Source: Candidatus Omnitrophota bacterium
GTDB taxonomy: Bacteria > Omnitrophota > Gorgyraeia > Gygaellales > Profunditerraquicolaceae
NCBI GenBank assembly: GCA_020058085.1
Contig: JAGVER010000014.1
Span: 33,747-97,746 of the forward strand
Length of the DNA stretch: 64,000 bases
Reading direction: 5' to 3'
The stretch's first letter is position 1. Every line of letters begins with the position of its first letter. Under the pieces are notes generated by a model that was not told where the DNA came from, made no database searches, and saw only the letters and a program-made list of their open reading frames with translations. This document shows, in pieces, positions 11,367 to 43,137 of the stretch. The position numbers were made by a program, and so were the translations under genes.

Positions 11367-11440
11367 GCACACCGGCAAATCTGCCGCAGTAGGCGGCATA
11401 CCCGCCATTCCAATATGGCGGGGTACATTAAGGCCGGGTG
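11367..11440. repeat. structured intergenic repeat, family 1 copy a (between xseA and xseB)
   Basis: 74-nt near-identical copy of 16794..16867: gcacaccggcaaatctgccgcagtaggcggcatacccgccattccaatatggcggggtacattaaggccgggtg, containing nested inverted repeats. Confidence 0.8.
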
Positions 11441-12676
11441 CTAATTAATTTCATTTTTTATAATCTCCTCAACCTTACTGATAAAACCACCTCTGCTGAG
11501 AATAGTCTTTATTCTATCCCCGGGATTAATCTTAAGCGTATCTTTAACAACAACCCCATCAACCTGCCGCATACTTAAACTATACCCGCGCGACAAAACT
11601 GCCAGAGGGCTAAGCGCTTCCAACCTCTCAATCGACGACCCTAGCCTCTCACGGGTAATATTGATTCTCTGCCGGACATTATTATTCAGGGCTACGGTTA
11701 GCTCATCTAAGAATTGCCCTTTCTCATCAAGGCGATCTGCCGGACTCTTTAAACTATGCTTAAGACGGGTAACTTCATTCTTAAAAGAATTAATTATATT
11801 AAAAACAGAAAAACCCAATTCGTGTTTTAAACCCGCCAATTCGGCTAATAAATGATTCTTCTTGTCCACGATGATCTTAGCAGCAGCCGTAGGAGTTTCA
11901 ACAAAGAGATCCGCCGCTAGATCGCAAAGACTTGTATTTATCTGATGTCCCACAGCCGAAATTATTGGTATCTTGGAATTATATACCGCGCGTGCGCAAA
12001 CCTCTTCATTAAATGCCCAAAGGTCCTCTCTGCTCCCGCCGCCGCGGCTGACAATAATAATGTCGACTGCGCTGGCTTCGCCGGCTTTATTAAACTCATT
12101 GAGTTCTTCTATGCCTTTAGCTATTTCAAGGGCAGCCCCTGTACCCTGTACGCGCACAGAACGTATTATTACGTCTACGCCACTAGCTCCTTTTTTAAGT
12201 ATCCCCAGTATATCGCGGATAGCAGCGCCTGCGCCTGAAGTAACTATGCCTACACTAAAAGGCATAAGTGGGAGTTCTTTTTTCCGCAGAGGATCAAATA
12301 GGCCTTCTTTGGAGAGCCTCTCTTTTAACTGCTCAAATGCCAGTTGCCGAGCCCCTATCCCTTTAGGCTCTATTCTTTCTACGATAAGCTGATATTGTCC
12401 GCGCGGGCCATAAACATCAACCTTGCCAAAACAGATAACCTTAATTCCGTCTTCAAGTTTAAATTTTACTTCTCGGTTTATCCGAGAAAACATTGCCGCG
12501 CTTAAAACAGACTTCTCATCTTTTAAAGAAAAATAAGAATGCCCGGAAGAAGCTGCCTTAAAATTAGAGATCTCTCCCTCAACCCAAACCCCCAATCCAA
12601 AAGTATTCTCAAAAATAACCTCGATCTCTTGGGTAATTTTAGTAACGGTGTAAATATACTTACTTTCCTGCGGCAT
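11441..12676 (-). CDS. xseA: exodeoxyribonuclease VII large subunit
   Basis: OB-fold N terminus (VWVEGEISNFK) and XseA catalytic region. Start trimmed to MPQESK (ATG at 12676). Confidence 0.75.
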   Translation of the reverse strand: MPQESKYIYTVTKITQEIEVIFENTFGLGVWVEGEISNFKAASSGHSYFSLKDEKSVLSAAMFSRINREVKFKLEDGIKVICFGKVDVYGPRGQYQLIVERIEPKGIGARQLAFEQLKERLSKEGLFDPLRKKELPLMPFSVGIVTSGAGAAIRDILGILKKGASGVDVIIRSVRVQGTGAALEIAKGIEELNEFNKAGEASAVDIIIVSRGGGSREDLWAFNEEVCARAVYNSKIPIISAVGHQINTSLCDLAADLFVETPTAAAKIIVDKKNHLLAELAGLKHELGFSVFNIINSFKNEVTRLKHSLKSPADRLDEKGQFLDELTVALNNNVRQRINITRERLGSSIERLEALSPLAVLSRGYSLSMRQVDGVVVKDTLKINPGDRIKTILSRGGFISKVEEIIKNEIN

Positions 12677-14432
12677 CTTTATTCGATTCCTTATCCGTCT
12701 CAAGCGCAGGCGCGACCGAGGCTGGGTCCGGCGCCGGGGGAGCCGGCTTCTTTTTTAATATAATCAAATTTACAGAATAAGGAGTGAGCTTCAAATCTTC
12801 CTGATACAAATCTTGGATAGATATCTCCTTCTCTTCAACCGGCTTAAATTCACAATTTAGACTACAGGAAGAATCAACTATAAAGCGGCTATAAGAATAT
12901 CCCTCCTTGATACCTTTAATGCTAATTTTGAGATTACGGGATGAATCTAGAGACTCTTTAGCCCTATCTGCTAATTCTTGGGACTTATTTAGCAAAACTT
13001 TAACTTTAGGTTCAGCGCGCAATAAGGCTATATCTTGTTCATGCGCAATAAATTTACCTAACTGGCCCGTCCTGATAATCTGCAGTAAAGACTGCCTCTC
13101 GGGGACATTAAGCCCTGCGATGTTTCGGGCAAGATAATTCTTGGCAATCTCGGGATCAATATAATTATAAATGAGAATACAAATTTCATCGGATGACTTT
13201 GTAGCGATAGCCCCGACAAACTCATCATCAATTTTAATCGAGAACGCATTCGAGCCTAGCTTACCCAACATTCTGAATACATTATAGGCAGCTTTATGCC
13301 CTCCCTTATATTGCGCGCGCTCGGAATCAAAATAAAAAACTCCGACATTCCTAGTAACATTCTCTGGATTGTTTCCAAAATCCTCTAAAGAAAAATAAAC
13401 CTGATTATCAAGGCCGGCCTCAAACATATTATTAATGCGTGCCGGTATATAACTTGCCGCAATATAAGACTCGCTTCTCCTTGCAGGTAACAGATTAACA
13501 TCAAGATCAAAATTCCATTCATCTATAATTAAGGACGTATCGCGCTTAAAATTAAAATACGAAAGCCAATCCCGAATAAGCTCCACCGCATTTTTATTAT
13601 ATATAGTGATCTCTTTTTCTGTTTTCGGGTCAGATGAAAAGGCGTGCCAAGTAATAAAATTCAAGGATAGCTTTTCAGAAGAACAGAATTTAATTAATTC
13701 ATAAATTAAGCTCTTTTCAGGGGTAAGAATATTATTACTCTCCAGATTATGAAACCATCCGCTAGGGCTCGGGGCACCCACGGGTATATTAATCTTAAAT
13801 TGGGCCCCTAGTTCTTTTGCGCTTTCAGAGATGACTCTATACATATTGAAATAATCTTGTGTTCGACCAATGAAAAAATCATCTAAATCAGGAGCAGCCC
13901 AGACCTCATACCATATATTATATTTCTTTTCACAACTTAAATATCTCATCGTATCCTTGACTAGCGTCTTAAAAGCCACTAGATTAAGTGGTGCGCTTTT
14001 TTTATCCAATGCTTTACCTAATCCCGCGGGGGTGCCAAATATATCAAGTATAACTGTCCCGCCGGCGTCTGAAATATTTTTTATCGCATCTTCGTAATTA
14101 GCCAGGAGTTTATCTTGTGCCACCTTATCTTTGGCCAGTTGATTAATCTCCCAAAGGTTGTACTGCATACGATAAAGGCTGGCAAAACTTATATCCTTAC
14201 GCCATAGGTCCAAAACATCTTTAGCAGCCAAGCCCTGCGGCCAAAAATTATCATGATGAAAACCTCGCCCTCCCAAATCAATATTGGGCTTAAAAATCGT
14301 AGGAGTAGGTGTAGTACTCGAAGTGATATCTAAGGCGAGTTCAAGGTTAACCTCTTGGGCAAAAAGAGGAGTACAAAAATAAAATAATGAAGCTACTAAG
14401 ACCAATCTTAACAATTGCCGCATCTTAAACAT
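12660..14432 (-). CDS. secreted TIM-barrel glycoside-hydrolase-like protein (GH5/GH39-like), hypothetical
   Basis: Signal peptide MFKMRQLLRLVLVASLFYFCTPLFAQ. YEVWAAPD sits where the WE.WNEP acid/base motif would be, and IIDEWNF is nucleophile-like. Proline-rich C-terminal tail. Confidence 0.3.
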   Translation of the reverse strand: MFKMRQLLRLVLVASLFYFCTPLFAQEVNLELALDITSSTTPTPTIFKPNIDLGGRGFHHDNFWPQGLAAKDVLDLWRKDISFASLYRMQYNLWEINQLAKDKVAQDKLLANYEDAIKNISDAGGTVILDIFGTPAGLGKALDKKSAPLNLVAFKTLVKDTMRYLSCEKKYNIWYEVWAAPDLDDFFIGRTQDYFNMYRVISESAKELGAQFKINIPVGAPSPSGWFHNLESNNILTPEKSLIYELIKFCSSEKLSLNFITWHAFSSDPKTEKEITIYNKNAVELIRDWLSYFNFKRDTSLIIDEWNFDLDVNLLPARRSESYIAASYIPARINNMFEAGLDNQVYFSLEDFGNNPENVTRNVGVFYFDSERAQYKGGHKAAYNVFRMLGKLGSNAFSIKIDDEFVGAIATKSSDEICILIYNYIDPEIAKNYLARNIAGLNVPERQSLLQIIRTGQLGKFIAHEQDIALLRAEPKVKVLLNKSQELADRAKESLDSSRNLKISIKGIKEGYSYSRFIVDSSCSLNCEFKPVEEKEISIQDLYQEDLKLTPYSVNLIILKKKPAPPAPDPASVAPALETDKESNKDAAGK

Positions 14433-15210
14433 TTAACTTTTCCTGAATCCTTAAAATAGAGTGTGCCTTACCGCTTTTATCATCTACGTCTACTACCACC
14501 CCATGCAACTGAATATTTTCTTCCGCTACTTCAAATCTTACCGGAATAGAAGTGAGAAACCGAGTTAAAACATCATCTACTTTTCTGCCAATAACCGAGT
14601 CATATGGCCCGGCCATCCCTACGTCGGTAATGTAAGCTGTGCCTTGAGGCAGAATCCTTTCATCCGCAGTCTGAATATGGGTATGCGTGCCTAAAACAGC
14701 GGAAACTTTTCCGTCGAGATACCAACCTAAAGCCACTTTCTCTGAAGTCGCCTCAGCATGGATATCTACAATAATTATTTTTGTCTCTTTGACTAGCTCT
14801 TCTTGCGCAGCCAATACACTCTTAAAGGGGCATTCCAACGCATCCATAAATACCCTGCCATTAACATTAATCACGCCAAGCTTCTCTCCGGATTTAGTTT
14901 TAAATATACTACTTCCTCTTCCAGGAGCGCCAGCCGGATAATTAAGCGGCCTTAAGATTCTCTCTTCCTGATTAATCAATTCAAATATCTCCTTCTTCTT
15001 CCAAATATGATCCCCGGAAGTCAATACATCCACTCCGGAATTAAATAACTCTTCCGCTACCTTTTGAGTAATGCCTGAACCACCCGAGGAATTTTCGGCA
15101 TTGGCAATTACAAAATCGAGAGAATGCCTTGTTTTCAATATAGGCAGAAGCTTATCCACTGCTTCTCTCCCCGGGCTACCGACTATGTCTCCAATAAATA
15201 GTATTTTCAT
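14425..15210 (-). CDS. ymdB: YmdB-family metallophosphoesterase (TIGR00282, 2',3'-cyclic-nucleotide phosphodiesterase)
   Basis: MKILFIGDIVGSPGR...ANAENSSGGSGIT motif. Sits immediately downstream of rny, as in Bacillus. Confidence 0.75.
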   Translation of the reverse strand: MKILFIGDIVGSPGREAVDKLLPILKTRHSLDFVIANAENSSGGSGITQKVAEELFNSGVDVLTSGDHIWKKKEIFELINQEERILRPLNYPAGAPGRGSSIFKTKSGEKLGVINVNGRVFMDALECPFKSVLAAQEELVKETKIIIVDIHAEATSEKVALGWYLDGKVSAVLGTHTHIQTADERILPQGTAYITDVGMAGPYDSVIGRKVDDVLTRFLTSIPVRFEVAEENIQLHGVVVDVDDKSGKAHSILRIQEKLNV

Positions 15211-15212
15211 CT

Positions 15213-16769
15213 TTACTTAGCATACTCGATCGCGCGAGTCTCTCTAATAACCGTCACCTTAATCTGACCAGGGTATTCCATGCCTTCTTCTATTTTCTTA
15301 CGAATATCCCTAGCCATAGCCGTAGCTTCGCTGTCTGTTATCTTCTCCGGCTGAACAATTACGCGGATCTCGCGGCCAGCCTGAATAGCAAATGATTTAT
15401 CTACCCCTTTAAAAAGATTAGCTATGGCCTCTAATTTTTCAAGCCTCTTGATATATGTTTCTAAGGTTTCCCGCCGAGCTCCCGGGCGAGAGGCGCTTAT
15501 GGCATCTGCGGCTATTGCTAAAACTCCGTAAATACTCTGTATCGGCGCTTCCTCATGATGCGACTCGATTGCTGCTACTACTTCAACAGACTCTCCATAT
15601 TTCTTGGCTAAATCTGCTCCTAACTTAGCATGTGTCCCTTCAACCTGATGATCAACTGCTTTTCCTATATCATGCAAAAGCCCTACTCTCCGCGCTAATT
15701 TAAAATCAAGGCCTAATTCTGTAGCCATCGAGCCCAAAAGAAATGACGCTTCCTTAGAATGCTGAAGAGCGTTTTGGCCAAAACTTGTACGATACTTAAG
15801 CCTACCAAGTAATTTAATTATCTCGGGATGCAGGCCATTTACCCCTGCCTCAAATGCCACGCGCTCTCCTTCTTCGCGTATTTTTTCATCCATCTCTTTC
15901 TTGGTCTTCTCAACTATCTCCTCAATCCTACCCGGATGAATCCTCCCGTCAGCAAGAAGTTTCTCTAAACTTAAACGGGCAATCTCCCTGCGCACAGCAT
16001 CAAAAGCAGATATGGTCACTGCTTCAGGGGTATCATCAATAATTACATCTACACCCGTGGCCATCTCAAAGGCACGAATATTTCTACCTTCGCGGCCAAT
16101 GACCCTTCCCTTCATTTCATCGTTAGGCAGAGCAACTACACTTACCGTAGATTCAACCGTATGTTCAGCCGCGCATTTTTGTATTGCCAGGCTCAAAATT
16201 TCTCTCGCTTTTTTATCCGAGGTAACGCGCAATTCTTCTTCCTGTTTTCTAATTAATGCCGCCTTTTCATTGCTCAACTCTTCATTAAGGCGGCTTAAAA
16301 GAATCTGCTTTGCCTCTTCAGCCGAAAGTGAGGATATTTTTTGCAGCCTTTCTTTTTCTTCAGCAATCAATAAATGTAACTGATTATCCTTGAGCTTCAT
16401 CCCATCTTCCTGCTTTTTAATCCCCTCGTGCTTTAAATCAAGCTCTTTTTCCTTTTTCTCTAAGAGGTCGAGTCTTCTATCAATATTTTCTTCTTTCTGG
16501 GTAAACCTCTTCTCCATATTAGAGATCTCTAAACGCCTATCCTTAGTTTCACGCTCAAAGTCCTGACGCACTCGGTAGAGAAGATCTTTTGCCTCTAGCT
16601 CTGCTTCCCTGCGCTTATCAATTGCTTCTTTTCTTGCTTGTTCTAATATATGTCCTGCTTGAGATTCGGCATCCTGAATTTTCTTTTCAGCCACATGTTT
16701 TCTTAAAACATAGCCGATTGCGGCAGCTATAAAAGCCACAACTATAGATACAATAGCGCTAATCAACAT
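15213..16769 (-). CDS. rny: ribonuclease Y
   Basis: N-terminal TM helix, coiled coil, KH domain and HD domain (LLHDIGKAVDHQVEGTHAKLG). Start trimmed to MLISAIV (ATG at 16769, with GGAGG upstream). Confidence 0.85.
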   Translation of the reverse strand: MLISAIVSIVVAFIAAAIGYVLRKHVAEKKIQDAESQAGHILEQARKEAIDKRREAELEAKDLLYRVRQDFERETKDRRLEISNMEKRFTQKEENIDRRLDLLEKKEKELDLKHEGIKKQEDGMKLKDNQLHLLIAEEKERLQKISSLSAEEAKQILLSRLNEELSNEKAALIRKQEEELRVTSDKKAREILSLAIQKCAAEHTVESTVSVVALPNDEMKGRVIGREGRNIRAFEMATGVDVIIDDTPEAVTISAFDAVRREIARLSLEKLLADGRIHPGRIEEIVEKTKKEMDEKIREEGERVAFEAGVNGLHPEIIKLLGRLKYRTSFGQNALQHSKEASFLLGSMATELGLDFKLARRVGLLHDIGKAVDHQVEGTHAKLGADLAKKYGESVEVVAAIESHHEEAPIQSIYGVLAIAADAISASRPGARRETLETYIKRLEKLEAIANLFKGVDKSFAIQAGREIRVIVQPEKITDSEATAMARDIRKKIEEGMEYPGQIKVTVIRETRAIEYAK

Positions 16770-16793
16770 GGAATTCCTCCTTGAACAGTAAGT

Positions 16794-16867
16794 GCACACC
16801 GGCAAATCTGCCGCAGTAGGCGGCATACCCGCCATTCCAATATGGCGGGGTACATTAAGGCCGGGTG
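16794..16867. repeat. structured intergenic repeat, family 1 copy b (5' leader of rny)
   Basis: Identical 74-nt core to 11367..11440. In mRNA sense it ends 25 nt before the rny ribosome-binding site. Confidence 0.8.
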
Positions 16868-16900
16868 TTAGGAAATAAACTTAAAAGATTTTTGTTGTCT

Positions 16901-17500
16901 TTAAGCGAAGAGGACTTTTTTGACGCTTACATCAGAGGAATTAATAGGAACAACTGGTAAGATTTGCAGTCGATATGCCAAACCAATTGACGGAGTATCT
17001 TTAGGGATCTTGCTTAAGAAGCGGTCGTAATAACCTTTCCCCCGGCCAAGGCGGTTACCCTTCTTATCAAAGGCAACACCCGGGGTAATTACTAAATCCA
17101 AGTCTTTTAAAGCTATAAATCGGCTTGTTACTGGCTCGGATACTCCATAAGGGCCCTTCTTTAGATGCGCAAAACTATCCAAGAGGGCCGGCCTTAAAGA
17201 TGTTCTATTTTTTATACAAACTGGCACGGCAATAATCTTACCTAAACTTTTAGCTGCTTCTATCATCTCTTTAGTTTCAACCTCGCCTTTTAAAGCGATG
17301 TAAAACATCACTCTCTTTGCTTTCTTAAAAACCGACTGTTTAAAAAGTTTCTCCTTAATTAAACAACTTTTTATACTACGGTCCTCCTTCTTCTGTTTTG
17401 ATAACTTGAGTAAGATTTTACTACGTATTTCTTGTTTTGTCAACCCAACTTCCGACTTACAAACACTTCTCGTTTTCATGAGTATGGCCTTTATCCTCAA
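16901..17500 (-). CDS. 5-formyltetrahydrofolate cyclo-ligase
   Basis: 199 aa with the GNRLGRGKGYYDRFL motif of the MTHFS family. Confidence 0.7.
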   Translation of the reverse strand: MRIKAILMKTRSVCKSEVGLTKQEIRSKILLKLSKQKKEDRSIKSCLIKEKLFKQSVFKKAKRVMFYIALKGEVETKEMIEAAKSLGKIIAVPVCIKNRTSLRPALLDSFAHLKKGPYGVSEPVTSRFIALKDLDLVITPGVAFDKKGNRLGRGKGYYDRFLSKIPKDTPSIGLAYRLQILPVVPINSSDVSVKKVLFA

Positions 17501-17894
17501 AAGGAATAGGCTTACCTTGTTTAGTATAATAATCTTTTAAGGCAGAACGCAACGCTTCTTCTGCTAATACCGAACAGTGCATTTTAACCGGCGGAAGCCC
17601 ACCTAATGCCTCGGCTACCGCTTTATTACTAATCTTTAAGGCTTCTTCAATAGTCTTACCTTTGACCATCTCCGTTACCATGGAACTCGTGGCCACAGCC
17701 GCGCCACACCCATACGTCTTAAACTTAATATCAATAATAATATTGTTCTCTATTTTTAAGAACATCTTCATTACATCCCCGCAGATAGGATTCCCGACGG
17801 TGCCGATACCACTGGCATCAGAAATTTCTCCCACATTTCTGGGATTGGTAAAATGATCCATTACTTTTTCGCTATAGGGTAATTGCCCGCTCAT
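17457..17894 (-). CDS. iscU: NifU/IscU-type Fe-S cluster scaffold
   Basis: Motifs NPRNVG, GDVMK, YGCGAA and HCS, with the three conserved Cys. Confidence 0.8.
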   Translation of the reverse strand: MSGQLPYSEKVMDHFTNPRNVGEISDASGIGTVGNPICGDVMKMFLKIENNIIIDIKFKTYGCGAAVATSSMVTEMVKGKTIEEALKISNKAVAEALGGLPPVKMHCSVLAEEALRSALKDYYTKQGKPIPFEDKGHTHENEKCL

Positions 17895-17906
17895 TTTTAC
17901 CTTTTC

Positions 17907-18560: not shown

Positions 18561-18591
18561 GTAGAAATTTTAGCACTAATCCCGGCCATTC

Positions 18592-26714: not shown

Positions 26715-27861
26715 TTCTTATAATCTCCACAGGATTAGAATTCAGTGTTATCCAGGTAGGGACTGCCGCAGCAAAAACCGCACTCCCTAAAATAATCCCT
26801 GTAATTTTTAGTATAAAAACAATTCCTAGCGTAGGAACAAGCGCATTGATGCCAGTTATACCAAAGATGTATGCTGTCCCTTTAAAACCCAGCAATATTC
26901 CAAGAGCGCCCCCGATGAATGCGACGATTAAAGATTCACAAATAAAAAGCAAAGCGATTTCAACCTTCTGCCATCCCAAAGCAAGTAAGATAGCGAGAAG
27001 CTTGCGTTTTTCAAAACTGGAAGTAACCATAGTATTAGCTAAGCCCAAGGCCACCGCGATAACAGTAATCAAGCTCACGAGAAAAGAAAATTGTTCTCCC
27101 ATTACAATGAATTTTGTCTTTTCGGAAACAAATGCGTCCGCTCTCATAGCCGCGATGGTCGGAAAAAGACGCTCGATCTCTTTTATCGTGCTCTCAATCA
27201 TAGCTTCCGATCGATACTGAGGCTTTAACTTTACGTTAATAAAAGTTGCCTTGCCTTCTTCATGGATTGTTTTCTGAAGATCTGCTAATGGCATCAGCAC
27301 AGCAAATTGTTCAAAAGGACTACTGCTCTTAAACACACCGACAACAATAAATGAGACCCCTTTGATTTTGATCTCTTTTTCATTTTCTTTCCCTAAACTC
27401 CTCGCCAGGGAATCACCGACCATGACTTCTTTTTTCCCAAGAGCAGGCCTCCTGCCATGGATAAGTTCAACGGCGTCAAATAAAAAGCTGTTCTCTTCCC
27501 ATCCAAAGACAGGAACCGCAACTCCTTTGATTTTATGAAGATATAAAAGCGTAGCCGAAGCATCCTCTATGGCCGAAATTCCTTGAATTTCTTGCGTAAG
27601 GTGTGCATCCACTCTGCTCAACAAAATACTCAACTGATCTTTCTCTTCAATAATTATCTCTATCTGGCGTTTACCATAAATATCTTTAAAAGAATTTTTT
27701 ATGCTTTCCCCTATACCTAGCATAATAATGCATACAGATACCCCAATACTAACCCCGCAAATAGTAAGGAAGACACGCATTTTTTTCTGAAAGATGTCTT
27801 TAACTAAAAAATATAATATATTCATAAGATTGATCCTGCTCGATAAAAAAAATCCCCGCAT
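26707..27861 (-). CDS. ABC transporter permease, FtsX/LolCE family
   Basis: 384 aa with an N-terminal TM, a periplasmic domain and 3 C-terminal TM helices. Cotranscribed with the ATPase. Confidence 0.65.
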   Translation of the reverse strand: MRGFFLSSRINLMNILYFLVKDIFQKKMRVFLTICGVSIGVSVCIIMLGIGESIKNSFKDIYGKRQIEIIIEEKDQLSILLSRVDAHLTQEIQGISAIEDASATLLYLHKIKGVAVPVFGWEENSFLFDAVELIHGRRPALGKKEVMVGDSLARSLGKENEKEIKIKGVSFIVVGVFKSSSPFEQFAVLMPLADLQKTIHEEGKATFINVKLKPQYRSEAMIESTIKEIERLFPTIAAMRADAFVSEKTKFIVMGEQFSFLVSLITVIAVALGLANTMVTSSFEKRKLLAILLALGWQKVEIALLFICESLIVAFIGGALGILLGFKGTAYIFGITGINALVPTLGIVFILKITGIILGSAVFAAAVPTWITLNSNPVEIIRSE

Positions 27862-28062
27862 CGTGCCGTCGGACTGAATAGCTTGAACCAGTTTATTTTA
27901 AGGTGGGTGCCCTCTCTCGGATGCTTAAGGCATACGTGAATACGGGCTCCCTTGATATTTTTGTTGGTTCAAAAATTATCAAATTTCCGACGCGCACAGC
28001 AGGGATATCTAAAAGAGCGATTTCTAGAAAAAGTATAGCATATATCCCGGAAAAGTCAATCC

Positions 28063-34558: not shown

Positions 34559-34589
34559 TCGGTTACGACCTCCAATCTTAATTCTCCTG

Positions 34590-34937: not shown

Positions 34938-34946
34938 GACAATTCC

Positions 34947-35034
34947 TCTCCTTGTGCAGTAGCACACACCGGACTCTCAATTAAGTCCGGGTGTTGCGCA
35001 GTAGCGCATAGCGGCCGCTCCAATTAGGCCGGGT
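34947..35034. repeat. structured intergenic repeat, family 2 copy a (rpmI-rplT spacer; two hairpin units)
   Basis: ctccttgtgcagtagcacacaccggactctcaattaagtccgggtgtt matches 43088..43137. It is followed by a second unit, gcagtagcgcatagcggccgctccaattaggccgggta, that resembles family 1. Confidence 0.75.
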
Positions 35035-35039
35035 ATTTT

Positions 35040-35240
35040 TTATCCGTATGGTAACATCCTTTTTAAATACTTTGTTTCTTTTTTATTATTCAATACGCCA
35101 CGTTTTCTTAATCTTCTTAATCTCTTGGCTTTCTTACTGGAGGCAAGGTGGCTTTTCCCGCCAAGCGAATATTTAATTTTACCCTTCTTGGTTAATTTAA
35201 ACCTTTTTGCTACTCCCCTTTTAGTCTTTAGCTTTCCCAT
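35040..35240 (-). CDS. rpmI: 50S ribosomal protein L35
   Basis: MGKLKTKRGVAKRFKLTKKGK, 66 aa. Confidence 0.9.
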   Translation of the reverse strand: MGKLKTKRGVAKRFKLTKKGKIKYSLGGKSHLASSKKAKRLRRLRKRGVLNNKKETKYLKRMLPYG

Positions 35241-35250
35241 TTTTTACCTC

Positions 35251-35769
35251 TTATGATTTAGGTGCAATTACAAAATACATAATCCTGCCTTCTAACGCAG
35301 GTGATTTTTCTACCTGGCCATCACCGGATAAATCAAGAATAAATTTATCTAAAACCTTTCTTCCTAAATCCAGATGTTCCATCTGCCTGCCACGGAAGAA
35401 AAGATTAATCTTAACTTTATCTTTTTTCTTCAAAAAACTTATTACCTGTTTTAGCTTAGTTTCATAATCATGGTCGTCAATATTTGGTTTTAAGCGAATC
35501 TCCTTAAGCTTACTCTGCTTTTGATGTTTTTTTGCCTCGCGCTCTTTTTTCTCCTCGTCATATTTGAACTTGCTGAAATCGATAATACGACAAACCGGAG
35601 GATTGGCGCTAGGAGCCACCTCTACCAAATCAAGTTCATACTGATTAGCTAATTCCAGGGCTTTTTGTATAGCTACTATCCCCAACTGATTTGCGTCCGG
35701 GCCGATAAGCCTTACATGTGGGACGCGAATCCTTTCATTTACTCGAATAAACTTTTTTATCGCAACCAC
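35251..35769 (-). CDS. infC: translation initiation factor IF-3 (GTG start)
   Basis: 172 aa with N and C IF-3 domains. The first codon is GTG. infC-rpmI-rplT order. Confidence 0.85.
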   Translation of the reverse strand: MVAIKKFIRVNERIRVPHVRLIGPDANQLGIVAIQKALELANQYELDLVEVAPSANPPVCRIIDFSKFKYDEEKKEREAKKHQKQSKLKEIRLKPNIDDHDYETKLKQVISFLKKKDKVKINLFFRGRQMEHLDLGRKVLDKFILDLSGDGQVEKSPALEGRIMYFVIAPKS

Positions 35770-35778
35770 CTACCTTTC

Positions 35779-37497
35779 TTATTGTTTGTTTTTTATCTCT
35801 TCAGTGGCTTGCTTTATAAAATCACTAAGCGCCACTGTGCCTATATTTCCCTTGCCTTTTTTTCTAATCGCTACTGTGCCGGCCATAGCCTCGCGCTCCC
35901 CGATAACAAGTGAATAAGGTATCTTGTTCAACTCGGCATTACGTATTCTTTTATTTAAAGTTTCATTGCTGGAGTCTATCTCTACACGCAAACCCGCATC
36001 TATTAAGTCGCTCATTACCTTTAAGCTATATTCGATAACAGAAGAACTAACCGGTATAATCAAAGTTTGAACCGGGGCAAGCCAGAGAGGAAAATCCGCA
36101 TTATAGTGCTCTATCAATGCACCGATAAAACGCTCTAAGCTTCCTAATAAAACCCTATGTAACATTATCGGTTGCTTCTCCTTGCCTTCATTATCGACAT
36201 AAGCAAGGCCAAATCTTTTAGGAAGGGCAAAATCGCATTGAATAGTAGCGCACTGCCAAGACCTCTTTAGGGCATCCTTTAATTTTATATCTATCTTAGG
36301 GCCGTAAAATGCTCCGTCCCCCTCATTAATATCATACTTTAATCCTTTTTCTTTTAAGGTGCTCTCTAACGCCTCCGTCGCCCTCCGCCAATCTTCTTCG
36401 GAACCGATATAATCTTTAGGCCGTGTGCTTAATTCTATTGCCCAATCATAAAACCCGAAAACCTTCATCGTATCAAATACGAAATCTATAACTCCTCCAA
36501 TTTCTTCGCGAAGTTGTTCAGGTAAACAAAATATATGCGCATCATCCTGAGTAAATCCGCGCACGCGCAATAGCCCATGCAAAACCCCTGCCTTTTCATG
36601 GCGATAAACCGTCCCCAGTTCAAATAGGCGTATAGGCAAATCTTTATAACTTCTCGTTTGTGATTTATAGATCAAAATATGCCCAGGACAATTCATCGGT
36701 TTCAAGACGTATTCTTGTTCGTCTATTTTGAATATATGCATATTATCTTTATAATAATCGTAGTGCCCGCTTTTCTTCCAAAGCCCAGACTGCATAATAT
36801 GCGGGGTAGTTACCATCTGATATCCACGTTTTAAATGTTCTTTCTTTTCATATTCTTCAATAAGGTTACGCAGTATTGCTCCTTTAGGATAATAAAAAAC
36901 TAACCCTGCCCCCGCCTCTTCATGATATATATCAAACAATCCTAAAGCCGGACCTATCTTACGGTGGTCGCGCAACCGAGCCTCTTCCAAATTTTTTAAA
37001 TGCCCCTCCAATTCTTTATGGGTTAAAAAAGCTGTGCCATAAATTCTCTGGAGCATTGGGTTGGTCTCTATGCCATGCCAATATGCCCCAGCGACAGAAA
37101 GAAGCTTAAAGGCCTTGATCTCTAAGGCAGATTCAATATGCGGCCCACGGCATAAATCTACAAATTTGTTTCCGGTTTTATAAATAGTTACCTTTGGATC
37201 GGCCAAGGCATTAATTAATTCTACCTTATAATCCTCTTTCAGCTTTCTAAATAATTTTATCGCCGCATCACGGTTAACTTCTTCCCTAATAAACTTTTCG
37301 TCTGAAGCTATAATTTCACGCATTTTGTTCTCGATCTTAAACAGGTCATCGTCGGTAAAGGGAGTTTTCTTATCGAAATCATAATAAAACCCATCCTCTA
37401 TAGAAGGGCCTATAGCTAATTTGGCATCCGGCCAAAGCTCTTTTACTGCGTAAGCCATTATATGTGAACAAGAGTGCCTTAAGGTATCTAGATTCAT
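35779..37497 (-). CDS. thrS: threonyl-tRNA synthetase (lacking the N-terminal TGS domain)
   Basis: Starts at the editing domain (HSCSH), followed by the class II catalytic and anticodon-binding domains. 572 aa. Confidence 0.8.
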   Translation of the reverse strand: MNLDTLRHSCSHIMAYAVKELWPDAKLAIGPSIEDGFYYDFDKKTPFTDDDLFKIENKMREIIASDEKFIREEVNRDAAIKLFRKLKEDYKVELINALADPKVTIYKTGNKFVDLCRGPHIESALEIKAFKLLSVAGAYWHGIETNPMLQRIYGTAFLTHKELEGHLKNLEEARLRDHRKIGPALGLFDIYHEEAGAGLVFYYPKGAILRNLIEEYEKKEHLKRGYQMVTTPHIMQSGLWKKSGHYDYYKDNMHIFKIDEQEYVLKPMNCPGHILIYKSQTRSYKDLPIRLFELGTVYRHEKAGVLHGLLRVRGFTQDDAHIFCLPEQLREEIGGVIDFVFDTMKVFGFYDWAIELSTRPKDYIGSEEDWRRATEALESTLKEKGLKYDINEGDGAFYGPKIDIKLKDALKRSWQCATIQCDFALPKRFGLAYVDNEGKEKQPIMLHRVLLGSLERFIGALIEHYNADFPLWLAPVQTLIIPVSSSVIEYSLKVMSDLIDAGLRVEIDSSNETLNKRIRNAELNKIPYSLVIGEREAMAGTVAIRKKGKGNIGTVALSDFIKQATEEIKNKQ

Positions 37498-38571
37498 TTA
37501 ATCACTGACAAATATATTGTTAGGTAACAGGTCTAATTTCTGAAAACGCTGAAAGAATAAGGGATAATATCTTATTGTCGGCTTAAGGCTACCCACTACT
37601 TTATCGTTTTCCATTTTCTCAAAACGGAAAGTAAATAAATCATTGAAGAGGATTTCATTATTATCCAGCCCCCTTACTTCGGTAATATAGGTAACCTTGC
37701 GGCTGCCATCCCGTACTCTCTCTAAATGCACGATTACATTAATAGCCGAGGCAATTAATTTTCTCGATTCTAAGATTGGGATATTCATCCCCGACATTAA
37801 GACCATAGTCTCCAGACGCGCCACTACATCCTTAGGGGAATTCCCGTGCACAACTCCTATGGTCCCGGAATGCCCCGTAGCCATAGCCTGAAACATGTTT
37901 ATTGCTTCTTCTCCCCGGACCTCTCCGACAATGATACGATCAGGAGCCATACGTAAGGAGTTAGAAATTAAATCTTTCAAGCTAACCCCGCCCTTACCAT
38001 CTTCGTCCGGTGTTCTTGTTTCCATAGAAATGTAGTTCTCCTGCGTGAACCTTAATTCCGCGGCATCTTCAATAGTAACCACTCTCTCGTGGGGAGCGAA
38101 ATAATTAGAGAGCATTTGCAAAAGAGTAGTCTTACCCGTACTTGTTCCTCCGGAAAATATCATATTTATCTTACCCTTAATACAAGCAATTAAAAAATCT
38201 GCTGCCTTCTGAGTCAAGGTATCATTAGCAATTAAATCCTGAAGCGTACCTATCTGTTTAGAAAATTTCCTGAAGGTTACTGCTGTCCCGAAACGAGATA
38301 CCGGAGCCATAATCATATTCACACGCGTGCCATCTTCAAGACAAACATCACCATAATAAATATCGTTACCTACGCGCTTGCCCACAGCGCGGAAAAAATT
38401 TCCTATAGTCCTGACCAGATCTTCCTCGCCAGAAAAGACAACATCGCTTAGGGCTTTTTTACCATCTCTCTCTACAAAAACTTTTTTAGGACCATTGACC
38501 ATAATTTCAGAAATTGCTGGGTCATCTATCAGTTTTTGCAGTGGACCTAAATCTAATTTATTACTCTCCAT
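37498..38571 (-). CDS. CpaF/TadA-like secretion or pilus-assembly ATPase (VirB11 superfamily), orphan
   Basis: [20 protein letters not shown] and Walker [15 protein letters not shown]. No other pilus genes nearby. Confidence 0.6.
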
Positions 38572-38622
38572 ACTAACCTCGCTTTCTATGCCAATTTAAT
38601 TTTCTTGTCAAAAAATTTAAAT

Positions 38623-38695
38623 GGGCGCTACAGGATTTGAACCCGTGGCCTTTTCCATGTCAAGGAAACGCTCTAACCAACTGAGCTAAGCGCCC
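38623..38695 (-). tRNA. tRNA-Val(GAC)
   Basis: Reverse complement GGGCGCTTAGCTCAGTTGGTTAGAGCG-TTTCC-TTGACAT-GGAAA...GGGTTCAAATCC...GCGCCC. Confidence 0.75.
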
Positions 38696-38703
38696 AAACT
38701 ATC

Positions 38704-38787
38704 ATGGGCAGGGAGGGAGTCGAACCCTCACGCTCTTACGAACGGGAGATTTTAAGTCTCCATTGTCTGCCATTCCAACACCTGCCC
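38704..38787 (-). tRNA. tRNA-Leu(TAA)
   Basis: Reverse complement GGGCAGG-TG-TTGGAATGGCAGACAA...GGAGA-CTTAAAA-TCTCC, a long variable arm, GGGTTCGACTCCCT and CCTGCCC. Confidence 0.75.
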
Positions 38788-38794
38788 AATTCTT

Positions 38795-39463
38795 CTAGGA
38801 ACAAAACGGAATGGTTGTTTTGCTTTTGCTCCAGCCCGCGTACGAATGCATACATTCTTGGGCTAATTTTATTTTTCTATCTAAACCAAAACAATTCTCA
38901 TAATAACAGTTTCTAGAAATTTCTTTAGCGGCCATTTTCCCGTATTTCAATACCCACAAATTAGCCCCATTCTTATGTATCTTGCCACGGACTTTTAATA
39001 AATTCTCAGCCACATTGTTTAACCAACTAATAAATTCACTAGATCCGGAATAAATTCTTAAACTCCACTGTTCTCTTTTATTCGAGGGATGAATCCATGC
39101 GCGAATGCAACCATCGCTATCAATTAGCCCTCTTAAAAAATCAACAAAAAATTTACTTGGCACATCTATTTTGCCTAAGGTAAGTGATTTGTTCGGTGTT
39201 AATCCTATTGATAAAAGAAATTCGTAAAAATTCCTATTTCCAATTTGGATATGAAAACATTTTTGTTTTTTACCATTATACTTAACACCGATTTGATTAG
39301 CAATACCAATCACAGTCTTTAGTTCTTGAAGAAAATTTTGATCTTTAGATGTTATATCAATATGCCTACCATCGGTACACAAACAGCCATCTGTCGTAAT
39401 CAACCCCACTAAATACCAAAGATTTGCGCCTACAATTTTTAATTCTTTTCGCTTTTGCGGCAT
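38795..39463 (-). CDS. free-standing double-motif LAGLIDADG homing endonuclease
   Basis: Two LAGLIDADG motifs, WYLVGLITTDGCL and FLRGLIDSDGCI. Start trimmed to MPQKRK (ATG at 39463), because the ORF-track version runs into tRNA-Cys. Flanked within 12 nt by intact tRNA genes. Confidence 0.7.
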   Translation of the reverse strand: MPQKRKELKIVGANLWYLVGLITTDGCLCTDGRHIDITSKDQNFLQELKTVIGIANQIGVKYNGKKQKCFHIQIGNRNFYEFLLSIGLTPNKSLTLGKIDVPSKFFVDFLRGLIDSDGCIRAWIHPSNKREQWSLRIYSGSSEFISWLNNVAENLLKVRGKIHKNGANLWVLKYGKMAAKEISRNCYYENCFGLDRKIKLAQECMHSYAGWSKSKTTIPFCS

Positions 39464-39474
39464 TTTTAATTCTA

Positions 39475-39546
39475 AGGCGACGAGCGGATTCGAACCGCTG
39501 AATAGCTCTTTTGCAGAGAGCTGCCTTACCACTTGGCTACGTCGCC
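39475..39546 (-). tRNA. tRNA-Cys(GCA)
   Basis: Reverse complement GGCGACGTAGCCAAGTGGTAAGGCA-GCTCT-CTGCAAA-AGAGC...GGTTCGAATCC...CGTCGCC. Confidence 0.75.
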
Positions 39547-39552
39547 AAACAT

Positions 39553-40092
39553 CTAAAGAACCTTGTTAACCTCCTTGATTATCGCCTCAATATCAGCCAA
39601 ACACCCCATACCAACGTCTCCACAGGCGAGTTTACCTTCTTGGGGGCCAATAAAAACATAGCCTAACTTTTTAAGTTTAGCAATATTATCCTGAGTAATT
39701 TTATTTTTATACATATTCTCGTTCATAGCCGGAGCGATTAAAACCGGGGCTCTGGTTGCGAGAATAATACAAGTCAATAAATCATCGCAAATTCCGGCGG
39801 CTATCTTAGCAATAATATTTGCTGTTGCTGGCGCAAGCAAAATTAAATCTGCTTTTTTGGCTAAAGATATGTGTTCTATCTCCCAAGTATCCACAAAATC
39901 AAAAAGCCCGCAATAAACCTTATTTCCGGAAAGGTTCTGGAAAACTATCGGCCTAATTAATTCTTCCGATTCTTTGGTCATCACTACAGTTACAGAACCA
40001 ATCTTCTCTTTAATCTGGCGCACGATATCACAAGATTTATAAATGGCGATACTCGCGCTAACCCCCAAAATAATATTCTTCTCTTTAACCAA
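39553..40092 (-). CDS. coaC: phosphopantothenoylcysteine decarboxylase-type flavoprotein (CoaC domain only)
   Basis: 179 aa with IILGVSASIAIYK, typical of the HFCD flavoprotein family. No CoaB domain is fused. Confidence 0.65.
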   Translation of the reverse strand: MVKEKNIILGVSASIAIYKSCDIVRQIKEKIGSVTVVMTKESEELIRPIVFQNLSGNKVYCGLFDFVDTWEIEHISLAKKADLILLAPATANIIAKIAAGICDDLLTCIILATRAPVLIAPAMNENMYKNKITQDNIAKLKKLGYVFIGPQEGKLACGDVGMGCLADIEAIIKEVNKVL

Positions 40093-40094
40093 TT

Positions 40095-40304
40095 TTACCC
40101 TTTGCCCTTAAGCTTCTTAGCCCGTACCCTGCCTTCAGTAATTTCATATAAGGCTATCGTAGAAGGCTTCAAGGCAGCATTGACATCTACGAGTTTAGGC
40201 TGGCCTTCGGCAATTTCAAGGGCTCTTTTTGCTGCCAAATTGACCAACTTATAAATCGACCCCTCACTCTTATCCAATAATCTTTCTCTATCAACATAAC
40301 CCAT
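40095..40304 (-). CDS. rpoZ: DNA-directed RNA polymerase subunit omega
   Basis: 69 aa with SIYKLVNLAAKRALEI. gmk-rpoZ synteny. Confidence 0.75.
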   Translation of the reverse strand: MGYVDRERLLDKSEGSIYKLVNLAAKRALEIAEGQPKLVDVNAALKPSTIALYEITEGRVRAKKLKGKG

Positions 40305-40307
40305 AGC

Positions 40308-40886
40308 TTACTCCTCGCTTTTATTTAATAACCTTTTTAATATAATACCTTTTAGTCTTTTGGCCGCTTGAACTAAATTTATATTTTTCAAAGAATAATC
40401 ATATTCTGATACATTCTTAAGCTCTCTCTCTGCGCGACTGATGCGCTTTGAGATCTCCTCCTCTCTGGTGCCCAGAGAGCGTCCCTCAATTCTTTTACGC
40501 AACTCCCCAAGAGAAGGGGGCATAATAAAAATGGTTATTGTATCCTTAGGATAAAGTTTTTTTATCCTACTGGCGCCCTTAAAATCGAGACAGAGCAATA
40601 CGTTTTTACCTTTTTTTAAGCTAAGCTCAAGTAAATCTTTTTTGGTGCCGTAATAATAGCCTAAGTACCTTGTCCATTCAAGAATTCTTTTGTTTTTTCT
40701 TAAGCTATGGAATATGTTTTCATTTATAAAAAAATAGTCCCTCCCTTCCCTCTCGCCTAAGCGCATAGGACGAGTAGTGAAAGAGATAGACTTAACAAAT
40801 ATTTTCTTGAGCGCCTTCTCCTTAAGCAGACGGTCGCGCAAGGTAGTCTTGCCCGAGCCCGAAGGGCCGGAAAGGACAAAAATCAT
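40308..40886 (-). CDS. gmk: guanylate kinase
   Basis: IFVLSGPSGSGKTTL P-loop and the guanylate kinase fold. Confidence 0.8.
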   Translation of the reverse strand: MIFVLSGPSGSGKTTLRDRLLKEKALKKIFVKSISFTTRPMRLGEREGRDYFFINENIFHSLRKNKRILEWTRYLGYYYGTKKDLLELSLKKGKNVLLCLDFKGASRIKKLYPKDTITIFIMPPSLGELRKRIEGRSLGTREEEISKRISRAERELKNVSEYDYSLKNINLVQAAKRLKGIILKRLLNKSEE

Positions 40887-41710
40887 TCTACATTCTGCAC
40901 CTGCTCTCGGATCTTTTCGATTAAACTCTTAATCTTAAGGACCTGGGCAGATACCGCCACATCAAATGTTTTAGCTGCCAACGTATTGGCCTCGCGCTGC
41001 ATCTCTTGAGCTATAAAATCGAGTTCTTTACCCACTGAACCGCTTGCAATAATTTTACTCTTAAGATTATTAATATGAAAACTAAGCCTATCTATCTCTT
41101 CTGTCGTATCCGTGTCTTTTAAAAATACTGCACGCTCTTCATCAGTAGCAAAGGCCTTAAGCCTTGCCTTAAGTGATTTTTTTAATATTTCTTTTATGCC
41201 GGACAGCCTCTTCTTAAGCTCTTCAGCCTGTTTTTTTAAATACCCCTGTAAAGCACTACCCTCTTTTATGCGCGCCTGAGTTAAATTATTTACAGCGATA
41301 TTTAAAGCGGTCTTTAATTTCGACCAGAGGCTCTCGGGAGAGACTCGTTTCTCTCCCAAAGTTAATACCCCGGGTAAATTTATCAAAGTACTTAATTCTA
41401 AATTATCTTTAAGTTTAAATTCCTCTTTGATACCATTTATTTTCTCTATATATTTTTTAAGGAGCGTTTTATTTATACAGGCATCCCCTGCTTGTTTACC
41501 GCTTAAATTTACTCCGCATGTTACTCTTCCTCTTTTAATCTTCAACTCAATAATTTTCTTCATCCTCTCTTCGAGAGAAAGCGATCCGTCGGGTAAATGC
41601 AATACTATCTCCAGAAACTTATGATTGGTACTTCTCAACTCTACAGATATCTTACCATACCCTGCAATCTCTATCTCGGAGCTGCCGAAGCCGGTCATAC
41701 TCTTAATCAT
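40883..41710 (-). CDS. yicC: YicC-family protein (TIGR00255)
   Basis: MIKSMTGFG N terminus and a DUF1732-like C terminus. yicC-gmk synteny. Confidence 0.7.
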   Translation of the reverse strand: MIKSMTGFGSSEIEIAGYGKISVELRSTNHKFLEIVLHLPDGSLSLEERMKKIIELKIKRGRVTCGVNLSGKQAGDACINKTLLKKYIEKINGIKEEFKLKDNLELSTLINLPGVLTLGEKRVSPESLWSKLKTALNIAVNNLTQARIKEGSALQGYLKKQAEELKKRLSGIKEILKKSLKARLKAFATDEERAVFLKDTDTTEEIDRLSFHINNLKSKIIASGSVGKELDFIAQEMQREANTLAAKTFDVAVSAQVLKIKSLIEKIREQVQNVE

Positions 41711-41722
41711 GATTTATCCTTT

Positions 41723-42229
41723 TTAAGAAACCCAGATATTGCTTCTTAACTCTTTCTTTACAATTTCTTGCGTAGGGTATAAATCTACAATAATCTCATC
41801 GGGCTGAAACCAGAGCTTAATCTCTCTCTCCGCATCAGGGACATCAGATGATACATGAATGACGTTTTCATAAACTCCGGTTGTAGTTATTCGTCCGTAA
41901 GACCCACGAATAGAGGTAGGATCTGCCTCTTCCGGATTTGTCGCCCCGGCTAATTCACGGCACTTCTTAATCGCATCCTCCCCCCAATAAACCAAGGCCA
42001 TAACTTTTTTGCGATCATGCAATTCACCCTGCAGATATTTAATGATCTCGCCGAAAAAAGGTTTTTCTTTCAGGTGACTATAGTGATTCACAGCTAATTC
42101 CTTAGAGACACGCACCATCTTGGCCGCGACAATTTCAAGCTTGGTCTCGGATAGGCGCGTAAGAATATTTCCGGTTAATGACTTTTTAAGCCCATCAGGC
42201 TTAATCAGAATTAAAACTGCTTGATTCAT
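41723..42229 (-). CDS. ndk: nucleoside diphosphate kinase
   Basis: LILIKPDG plus an active-site His region NVIHVSSD. Confidence 0.7.
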   Translation of the reverse strand: MNQAVLILIKPDGLKKSLTGNILTRLSETKLEIVAAKMVRVSKELAVNHYSHLKEKPFFGEIIKYLQGELHDRKKVMALVYWGEDAIKKCRELAGATNPEEADPTSIRGSYGRITTTGVYENVIHVSSDVPDAEREIKLWFQPDEIIVDLYPTQEIVKKELRSNIWVS

Positions 42230-43080
42230 TACGATTTACCTCCCTTAATTACACCTATGATCCTCTCTAAATCTTCTTGAGAATAAAATTCAATAAGGAT
42301 CTGCCCGCGTTTTTTCATTTTGCTAACCCTGACCTTAGTGGAGAGCAACTGCTGCAGGTCTTCTTCAACTGCTGCCACATATGGCTCACGAACCGCGTAC
42401 GAACTTTTACGCCTTATACCTTTAGGGCGATGTGTTTTAATTAAATTCTCCAGCTCTCTTACCGACAAACCCCTGGATATTACTTCTTGAGTCAACCTGC
42501 GCTGCTGGTTTTCATCCTCTATCTCCAATAATGCCCGACCATGCGCGAATGATATACGGCCTTTTTTCATCTCATCTTGAATCTCATGCGGAAGCTTCAG
42601 TAATCTTAAGGTATTAGCGATAGTAGCGCGAGCCTTACCTAAACCCTCGCCAATCTTTTCCTGGGTTACCTGAAACTTATCCATAAGATGCTGGTAAGCA
42701 TGTGCCTCTTCAATAGGATTCAAGCTCTCTCTTTGTATATTCTCTATCAATGCGTATTCTAGTGAATCGCGATCATCAACATCTTTAACTATTATTGGTA
42801 TCTCCTTGAGCTCCAATGATTTACATGCACGCAACCTTCTTTCTCCGGCTATTAATTCATAAGAATCACCTTTGCGTCTCACCAGAAGCGGCTGAATCAC
42901 CCCTTTTTCTTTTATTGATTGAGCAAGTTCTGCAATTGTACTCAAATCAAAATCTTCCCGCGGCTGAAAAGGATTTGGCTTGATTTGTCCAGTCTGGACA
43001 TAAATAATCGCGCTTTTATCAACATTCTCCCTCTCCGGTATTAAGGCGCCAATACCTTTCCCCAAGGCTTTTCTTTCCAT
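42229..43080 (-). CDS. parB: chromosome partitioning protein ParB
   Basis: ParB box GERRLRA and a helix-turn-helix. Start trimmed to MERKALGKG (ATG at 43080); the upstream MCYCTRRRSL is repeat read-through. Confidence 0.85.
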   Translation of the reverse strand: MERKALGKGIGALIPERENVDKSAIIYVQTGQIKPNPFQPREDFDLSTIAELAQSIKEKGVIQPLLVRRKGDSYELIAGERRLRACKSLELKEIPIIVKDVDDRDSLEYALIENIQRESLNPIEEAHAYQHLMDKFQVTQEKIGEGLGKARATIANTLRLLKLPHEIQDEMKKGRISFAHGRALLEIEDENQQRRLTQEVISRGLSVRELENLIKTHRPKGIRRKSSYAVREPYVAAVEEDLQQLLSTKVRVSKMKKRGQILIEFYSQEDLERIIGVIKGGKS

Positions 43081-43087
43081 CAAGCTT

Positions 43088-43137
43088 CTCCTCCTTGTGC
43101 AGTAGCACACACCGGACTCTCAATTAAGTCCGGGTGT
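43088..43137. repeat. structured intergenic repeat, family 2 copy b (parA-parB spacer)
   Basis: ctccttgtgcagtagcacacaccggactctcaattaagtccgggtgtt. In mRNA sense it forms a hairpin ending at the parB ribosome-binding site. Confidence 0.75.

Follow-up and report, generated by a model that had tools for sequence, protein, structure and literature searches.

A two-hairpin repeat adjoining Shine-Dalgarno sequences in Omnitrophota: a probable dispersed, recently inserted element

A 64,000-nucleotide (nt) stretch of the genome of a Candidatus Omnitrophota bacterium (assembly GCA_020058085.1, contig JAGVER010000014.1; the whole stretch is referred to here as the window) carries a family of short repeats whose loci all adjoin the GGAG of a Shine-Dalgarno sequence, and we consider it likely that this family is a dispersed, recently inserted repeat of Omnitrophota with a GGAG-adjacent, sense-oriented target. 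Four features of this reading are supported directly: the repeat itself, its two covarying hairpins, its insertion polymorphism among relatives, and its GGAG-adjacent, sense-oriented position. Sequences are given in the mRNA sense unless the antisense strand is stated, and slashes mark junctions. Empty and filled sites were compared across orthologous regions of relatives (L012 to L026), and further copies come from other loci (among them L003, L004, L006, L009, and L011).

RESULTS

The family comprises five units at four loci: two composite copies of 74 nt, two short copies of 44 nt, and one diverged tandem unit (Table 1). These loci lie where a preliminary description of this DNA had placed them, and the copies it called near-identical (11367-11440 and 16794-16867) in fact match at 74 of 74 positions, within flanks that are divergent and unrelated except for the ribosome-binding site. 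The two short type A copies, described there as sharing sequence, are identical across ~48 nt, and the third, diverged short unit forms a direct tandem with one of them. Read-through of the repeats, to which it attributed several false N-termini, is also evident in the list of open reading frames (ORFs), where MAGMPPTAADLPVC and VCYCTRR both recur. The pattern CACCGG-N-CCGGGT occurs twice against an expectation of 0.04, and a covariance model built from seven units returned exactly five matches in the window (54 to 66 bits, E values of ~1e-10 to 1e-12), all on the minus strand, which is the gene-sense strand, and nothing further above 10 bits. The elements have a G+C content of 52 to 61%, compared to 40.5% for the window. 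The flanking gene pairs are xseA and xseB, the 5-formyltetrahydrofolate cyclo-ligase gene (MTHFS) and rny, rpmI and rplT, and parA and parB; the ParB and RNase Y proteins of the window have hundreds of close homologues labelled Candidatus Omnitrophica or Omnitrophota.

The basic unit is ~42 nt long and consists of two hairpins. The large one is an imperfect stem of 10 to 11 bp with one extrahelical base, in which the arms (R)RCACCCGGnn and nnCCGG-U-GUG enclose the loop UUAAUUGAGA; the small one is a 5-bp stem, with YGCGC and GCRCA enclosing UACU. A final A follows, giving a unit end of ...GCRCAA, and the GGAG of the Shine-Dalgarno sequence comes next. Among nine distinct units, 94% of the cells pair and compensatory double changes occur at 6 of 13 pairs, a level of covariation reached by none of 500 shuffled controls. 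Such changes include GGACU with AGUCC versus GGCC with GGCC versus CGCC with GGCG in the large stem, and UGUGC with GCACA versus UGCGC with GCGCA versus UGUCU with AGACA in the small stem, while the hairpin loops are conserved among units. Secondary-structure prediction, which the preliminary description had proposed as a check on its hairpin leaders, gives folds that far exceed shuffled sequence in stability (RNA, z = -2.6 to -4.2; DNA, z down to -5.0), with the Shine-Dalgarno sequence outside the hairpins and unpaired. The stable stem-loops in the mRNA sense, their single orientation and their association with four unrelated genes are retained from that description, but each unit has two hairpins rather than one. 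The element adjoins the Shine-Dalgarno sequence directly. Neither strand folds better than the other, whether as RNA or DNA, and a comparison of G-U with A-C pairs (3 versus 2) does not tell the strands apart. The unit has no start codon or reading frame and no terminal inverted repeats, its ends (TTGYGCAGTAG... and ...CCGGGTGYY) not being inverted copies of each other.

The longer form of 74 to 89 nt contains a complete unit (53.9 bits in both cases) within the loop of a second large hairpin and folds as a three-way junction with a predicted energy of about -44 kcal/mol. In both composites the small hairpin of the outer unit has decayed, and it has done so differently, with 4 differences in 13 nt beside 74 identical nt. 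The covarying stems, the conserved loops and this three-way junction might be taken to indicate either a regulatory RNA that binds a ligand or a protein (a riboswitch or a ribosomal-protein leader, for example) or a small ribozyme that cleaves itself. We regard such an identity as very improbable and set it aside, given that the core motifs of the hammerhead, twister, pistol, and hatchet ribozymes are absent, the downstream genes are functionally unrelated, and presence or absence of the element varies among near-identical strains. Searches against Rfam, of the whole window at gathering thresholds and of two loci at E values up to 10, likewise gave nothing relevant, the best match being freshwater-2 at 19.6 bits (threshold, 49.9; E = 0.5).

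Table 1. Units of the repeat family and adjoining features in the window
Feature	Coordinates	Strand	Remarks
Composite (nested) element, xseA stop codon to xseB Shine-Dalgarno sequence	11354..11442	minus	Core 11367-11440 identical to rny copy; site empty in L020, L021, L023, L026
Parts of the xseB composite: outer hairpin; inner complete unit; decayed second hairpin	Inner unit 11382-11426; decayed hairpin 11354-11366	minus	
Composite (nested) element, MTHFS to rny Shine-Dalgarno sequence	16781..16869	minus	Inner unit 16809-16853; site empty in L020-L024, L026
Short unit, type A, adjoining rplT Shine-Dalgarno sequence	34952..34995	minus	66.5 bits; rpmI-rplT empty in L017
Short unit, type B, diverged, with compensatory stem changes	34996..35037	minus	63.2 bits; tandem, upstream of unit A
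Short unit, type A, parA-parB	43095..43138	minus	Site empty in L012-L019, L025
xseB Shine-Dalgarno GGAG, directly 3' of element	11350..11353	minus	Start codon 11340-11342
rny Shine-Dalgarno GGAG, directly 3' of element	16777..16780	minus	Start codon 16767-16769
rplT Shine-Dalgarno GGAG, directly 3' of unit A	34948..34951	minus	Start codon 34935-34937
parB Shine-Dalgarno GGAG, directly 3' of element	43091..43094	minus	Start codon 43078-43080
Unoccupied target, thrS stop codon to infC Shine-Dalgarno sequence, TAAGAAA/GGTAGG	35769..35781	minus	L017 carries a unit there (16597-16638)

In the closest available relatives (92 to 97% protein identity), all four of the window junctions are empty (Table 2). 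The parA and parB genes overlap or abut in L025 (94% identity in ParB), L012 and L013 (93%), L014 to L016 (92%), and L017 to L019 (86%); xseA and xseB also overlap or abut in relatives, and the MTHFS-rny junction, where the gene distance in relatives is 43 nt, is empty in L020 to L024 as well. The reciprocal case is found between thrS and infC, which is filled in L017 and empty in the window. Whenever a filled site is set against an empty one, the two agree over the whole stretch between GGAG and the start codon, with ...CAA/GGAG at the end of the insert, and no consistent target-site duplication was found at the five sites compared.

Table 2. Empty and filled junctions (length or content of the insert in parentheses)
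Gene pair	Empty site	Filled site
parA-parB	L025: GTTAAATCT/GGAGGAGAAGCTTAATG	Window: GTTAAATAA(42 nt)GGAGGAGAAGCTTGATG
MTHFS-rny	L026 (97% identity in RNase Y, 92.4% in nucleotides): ...TTTTCTAA/GGAGGAATTCCATG	Window: ...TTTCCTAA(87 nt)GGAGGAATTCCATG
xseA-xseB	L026: AATTAATTGT/GGAGAAATAAAATG	Window: AATTAATTAG(87 nt)GGAGAAATAAGATG
rpmI-rplT	L017: TAAGAAAA/GGAGAG	Window: TAAAAAA(two units)GGAGAG
thrS-infC (reciprocal)	Window: TAAGAAA/GGTAGGTGG	L017: GGAAGG(...)GGAGGTGG, 45.5 bits

Copies are identical inside this genome, but its coding DNA is ~8% different from that of the nearest relative, so the insertions would be recent. Since overlapping parA/parB and xseA/xseB are the general arrangement, assuming a precise deletion in each of the relatives is far less parsimonious. 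Judged from these alignments, the units appear to be lineage-specific, recent insertions of a dispersed element rather than inherited regulatory leaders; the leaders of xseB, rny, rplT, and parB that the preliminary description had called conserved are missing from all four junctions in the nearest relatives.

The position of the element was assessed beyond the window with a pattern limited to the hairpin region, leaving out the Shine-Dalgarno sequence. A scan of 185,579 species genomes recovered one true match, in a Candidatus Omnitrophica metagenome-assembled genome, indicating either that the family is narrow or that the pattern is strict, and metagenomes scanned in the same way contributed four further independent loci. 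The matches read ...GCGCAA/GG(A/G)... with a start codon 5 to 10 nt later, and the genes that follow include hemC, a 4-oxalocrotonate-tautomerase-like gene, rplL, and purE. Taking the window, L017 and the scan matches together, 10 of 10 sites adjoin a Shine-Dalgarno sequence in the sense orientation, and those beyond the window fall in at least five other Omnitrophota assemblies. A preference of position relative to ribosome-binding sites, on which the preliminary description had staked its proposal, thus holds for all copies found, and it is best accounted for by the site of integration. All copies are sense-oriented, either with co-directional genes on both sides or within a 5' leader, and the ten downstream genes have no common function. 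What these sites have in common is oriented insertion beside a fixed short sequence, CTCC/ on the antisense strand, without duplication.

The arrangement of units within loci is consistent with repeated use of the same target. In the tandem pair, unit A sits between unit B and the Shine-Dalgarno sequence, which fits the arrival of A second at the same site. In the composites, the nested unit occupies the place where the outer loop normally reads UU/GAGAGG, or CTC/ on the other strand, suggesting that the element's own loop mimics the target; the 74- to 89-nt form would then result from insertion of one unit into the loop of another. The window contains 429 GGAG tetramers on the two strands together, and integration beside GGAG followed by loss of coding-disrupting insertions would suffice to leave only copies at ribosome-binding sites.

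This strict position and orientation at all 10 sites could also be read as the mark of a host-selected, cis-acting RNA, in which a stem-loop at the 5' end or between cistrons would shield the mRNA that follows it from RNase Y or RNase J, or would mark a processing site, and would be retained for that role. The hairpins are stable in the mRNA sense and do not occlude the Shine-Dalgarno sequence; a promoter-like TTGACA-17-TAACAT in L011 stops 12 nt short of the element, which would put the hairpin near the mRNA 5' end; and the copy upstream of purE is identical at 41 of 41 positions in L009 and L011, although the flanks are 93.6% identical. We nevertheless consider selection for such an RNA an unlikely origin of the family: the same genes lack the element in the nearest relatives, the identity of copies within the genome speaks for a recent spread and not for selection over a long period, the fold is symmetric between strands with no G-U bias, the downstream genes belong to no common regulon, the hairpin proximal to the Shine-Dalgarno sequence has decayed in both composites, and related genomes are also crowded with other families of intergenic hairpin repeats. 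An effect on mRNA, whether through a stabilizing or an insulating 5' or intercistronic stem-loop, is possible as a by-product of insertion.

The L009 and L011 loci also share a synteny breakpoint. The identity between L009:1736-4661 and L011:62-2987, 93.6% over 2.9 kb, starts exactly at base 2 of the element that precedes purE. The sequences ahead of that point are unrelated: L009 has the 3' end of purD there, and L011 has a promoter-like region rich in A+T. A breakpoint at the 5' edge of the element would follow from independent insertion at the same ribosome-binding site or from rearrangement at the repeat.

Insertion has consequences for the upstream gene, the last codons of which are removed where it had overlapped the Shine-Dalgarno sequence. 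In the window, the ParA protein ends ...VK, versus ...VKSGGEA in L025, and XseA ends ...NEIN versus ...DGINCGEIK in L026. The stop codon falls exactly at the junction upstream of parB (U/AA) and xseB (U/AG) and in L004 (UG/A); the parA TAA (43137-43139) is completed by the last two bases of the unit at that locus, and the type B unit begins 6 nt past the rpmI stop codon. In L009, purD runs six codons into the unit and ends at the UGA of the loop, and in L003 the upstream frame reads through the unit. Counting the junction stop, the type A units and L006:5828-5869 close all three frames over their first 20 nt, by means of a UAA at the edge together with a UAA and a UGA in the loop, and other units close only one or two. 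The purines at the junction (AA, AG, GG) are either the element's own or selected after insertion. From the predicted gene layout and folds, translational coupling by overlap is lost at the split pairs, and the Shine-Dalgarno sequence lies outside the hairpins.

Several features of the window and of related loci lie outside this family. Another family of repeats, presumably the one that the preliminary description counted as its first, has a CTTGnnn...nnnCAAG-type hairpin followed by CTAGAYAAAAACTTATGGTGCTCAA and is present at 44011-44076, 46310-46375, 56559-56589, and 59179-59209, clustering around dnaA and the oriC region and in other intergenic spacers, and a similar palindrome, TCCTTGCGC...GCGCAAGGA, lies at L023:500-520. 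Further intergenic hairpin repeats in relatives (L017:17160-17480; L021:1355-1490; L020:1700-1850, 4875-4980, and 7730-7815) are absent from the orthologous spacers of the window. One of these families has TGTCATTCTGA... inverted termini and three copies in L020, and another pairs a GCACTTGACTTATG...CATAAGTCAA hairpin with a CCCGCCGAATA...GAGGCGGG hairpin; the L017 block (17160-17480) had no match in Rfam. Gene orientation flips at 46021-46601, presumably the replication origin, with yidD-yidC-jag-parAB to the left on the minus strand and dnaA (46602-47939, plus strand), dnaN, and gyrB to the right on the plus strand. The five units are all found on the left replichore, among genes co-directional with replication, and none occurs in the 18 kb to the right. 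A 6S RNA gene (27849-28008, minus strand, 73 bits) lies between pheT and a gene for an FtsX/MacB-type permease. The ORF at 49457-53179 (plus strand, 1,240 amino acids) has as its counterpart in relatives, judged by synteny and size, a GyrB with an intein (Pfam Intein_splicing), and a free-standing LAGLIDADG ORF lies at 38795-39532 (minus strand) among tRNA-Cys, tRNA-Leu, and tRNA-Val genes. The relative L020 has an intein and a LAGLIDADG domain in NifU, and the window has neither there.

DISCUSSION

We propose that the element is a small, non-autonomous mobile repeat, REP-like or MIRU-like in character, that would integrate in a fixed orientation directly 5' of GGAG, that is, 3' of CTCC on the complementary strand, with no evident target duplication. 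Copies landing at GGAG inside coding sequence would be lost and those at genuine Shine-Dalgarno sequences would persist, since GGAG elsewhere lies mostly within coding sequence. Insertion would split overlapping or abutting gene pairs, often bringing a stop codon at the junction or in a hairpin loop, and it is presumably tolerated because the downstream gene keeps its Shine-Dalgarno sequence, spacer, and start codon in an intact, unpaired state. Mobilization may depend on a trans-acting enzyme that acts on single strands (HUH/Y1, RAYT- or IS200-like) and recognizes the imperfect hairpin. The likeness to single-strand HUH (Y1) systems lies in the strand specificity, the fixed adjacent sequence, the imperfect hairpin, the conserved loops, and the lack of terminal inverted repeats and duplications, and we offer the assignment of this enzyme only tentatively.

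Several observations weigh against this proposal. Only 10 sites are known, and all are in genes co-oriented with replication, which makes gene direction and replication direction inseparable; the observed position could owe something to selection alone and not to a choice of target. At parB and xseB, the two bases beside the insert differ from those of all relatives, which limits the precision of the junction to 2 nt. No transposase or HUH gene was found among the non-syntenic ORFs of the window or in any fetched locus, the unit has two dissimilar hairpins and lacks terminal inverted repeats, in contrast to the ends of IS200/IS605 elements, and the L017 copy is without GTAG.

The uneven junctions and the missing enzyme gene are also what would be expected if the repeat spread without a transposase, through template switching or gene conversion between ribosome-binding sites by means of GGAG(G) microhomology at one end and A/T-rich sequence or a stop codon at the opposite end. 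The right junction always falls within GGAG, which is common to donor and target, whereas the left is less exact (AA, AG, or GG, with two bases replaced at parB and xseB), and the identical 74-nt core next to 13 nt with 4 differences resembles a conversion tract. However, 4 bases of homology would hardly account for precise events recurring at 10 different genes in several genomes; the loops, which are conserved, and the extrahelical base resemble a site recognized by a protein; and the left end is nonetheless constant within 2 nt. We regard this route as an improbable but genuine rival account of how the repeat dispersed.

Among known systems, the closest resemblance of our proposed mobile repeat in structure and possible enzymology is to REPs, imperfect palindromes of 30 to 40 nt with GTAG 5' of the hairpin foot, for which the E. 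coli TnpA-REP protein requires both GTAG and a stem mismatch for binding and cuts single-stranded DNA at CC/T (PMC3333891). On the antisense strand, the element reads CTCC/TTGYGCAGTAGCRCA-CACCGG...CCGGGTG. Both are short (30 to 45 nt), G+C-rich, imperfect hairpins with a mismatch or extrahelical base in an A+T-rich genome; both are extragenic, dispersed, near-identical, and sometimes in tandem; and the CC/T cleavage of TnpA-REP has a counterpart in the CTCC/TT junction of the element on the same strand. A GTAG ahead of the hairpin on the antisense strand of the element recalls the REP motif needed for RAYT binding, but it is present in 8 of 9 distinct units and lies 4 to 5 nt from the hairpin foot, inside the second, small hairpin; the inverted pairs of BIMEs and REPINs are not found, only a direct tandem (34952-35037) or nested copies; and REPs are not known at a fixed offset from Shine-Dalgarno sequences. 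Neither the window nor the fetched loci contain a RAYT gene.

In behavior, the closest analogues are MIRUs, which PMC12548453 (citing Supply et al. 1997) describes as oriented repeats inside operons, believed to be mobile elements that insert at translation starts with downstream expression preserved. Like them, the element is small, intercistronic, and in one orientation with respect to transcription. MIRUs, however, contain a small reading frame overlapping the stop and start codons on either side, with translational coupling at a -4 spacing, whereas the element has no reading frame, is based on hairpins, and sits 5' of the Shine-Dalgarno sequence and not at the start codon; it abolishes coupling where a MIRU restores it. 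Miniature elements derived from IS200/IS605 (PATE type) are similar in being strand-specific, inserted beside a short sequence, reliant on hairpins, and free of duplications and terminal inverted repeats. IS200/IS605 elements, in turn, have two similar subterminal hairpins and a length of at least ~100 nt, as opposed to the two dissimilar hairpins and 42 nt of the element, and no TnpA was found in the window or the fetched loci. The ompA and ermC leaders and the STAB-SD of cryIIIA are fixed features of particular genes, with a stabilization that has been experimentally shown. The element resembles these 5' stabilizers in placing a stem-loop upstream of a strong Shine-Dalgarno sequence, and it differs in being a dispersed insertion. 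The element belongs to neither the REP nor the MIRU family and is a small, non-autonomous intergenic repeat with an unusual, well-supported target rule.

Other identities were considered and rejected. There is no tRNA or tmRNA at the loci from which the element could have originated, and the units contain no promoter-like hexamers. A terminator function was discounted because the hairpin, read in the mRNA sense, lacks a U-run, and because the opposite strand gives terminator-like calls only at the level of shuffled sequence. Integron attC sites are a poor match, as the flanking genes are syntenic core genes and no GTTRRRY core is present; the CTTG target of IS91-type elements does not apply, as CAA/TTG is absent from the empty sites; and a classical MITE (miniature inverted-repeat transposable element) would have terminal inverted repeats and a target duplication, both of which are lacking. 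Regular-expression searches across 197 kb found no decayed relic copies, and viral contigs gave no match to the element.

Whether the element has a true mechanistic specificity for the Shine-Dalgarno core, acting as a selfish "cistron spacer" on single-stranded DNA that uses ribosome-binding sites as safe harbors, is to us a matter of slightly less than even chances. A literature search gave no precedent for a mini-element targeting Shine-Dalgarno sequences beyond MIRU, and the reviews on bacterial mini-elements that we searched make no mention of targeting adjacent to them. If such specificity is true, overlapping, coupled gene pairs are turned into hairpin-separated cistrons with stops in up to three frames, by a targeting strategy undescribed for bacterial mini-elements, and an uncharacterized recombinase in Omnitrophota is implied.

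Our findings have multiple implications for the interpretation of compact genomes such as these. A hairpin before many ribosome-binding sites can be the landing footprint of a mobile element and not a regulatory leader. The broken coupling in parA/parB and xseA/xseB may alter the expression ratios of these genes, and the presence or absence of the element among strains that are 92 to 97% identical makes it usable as a strain marker for groundwater Omnitrophota. The enzyme behind the element could be a short-site-specific, single-strand DNA integrase. Finally, if the GGAG targeting is mechanistic, it shows how a selfish element can colonize a compact, operon-dense genome without polar effects, by cutting between cistrons such that the upstream frame is ended and the downstream ribosome-binding site is left intact.

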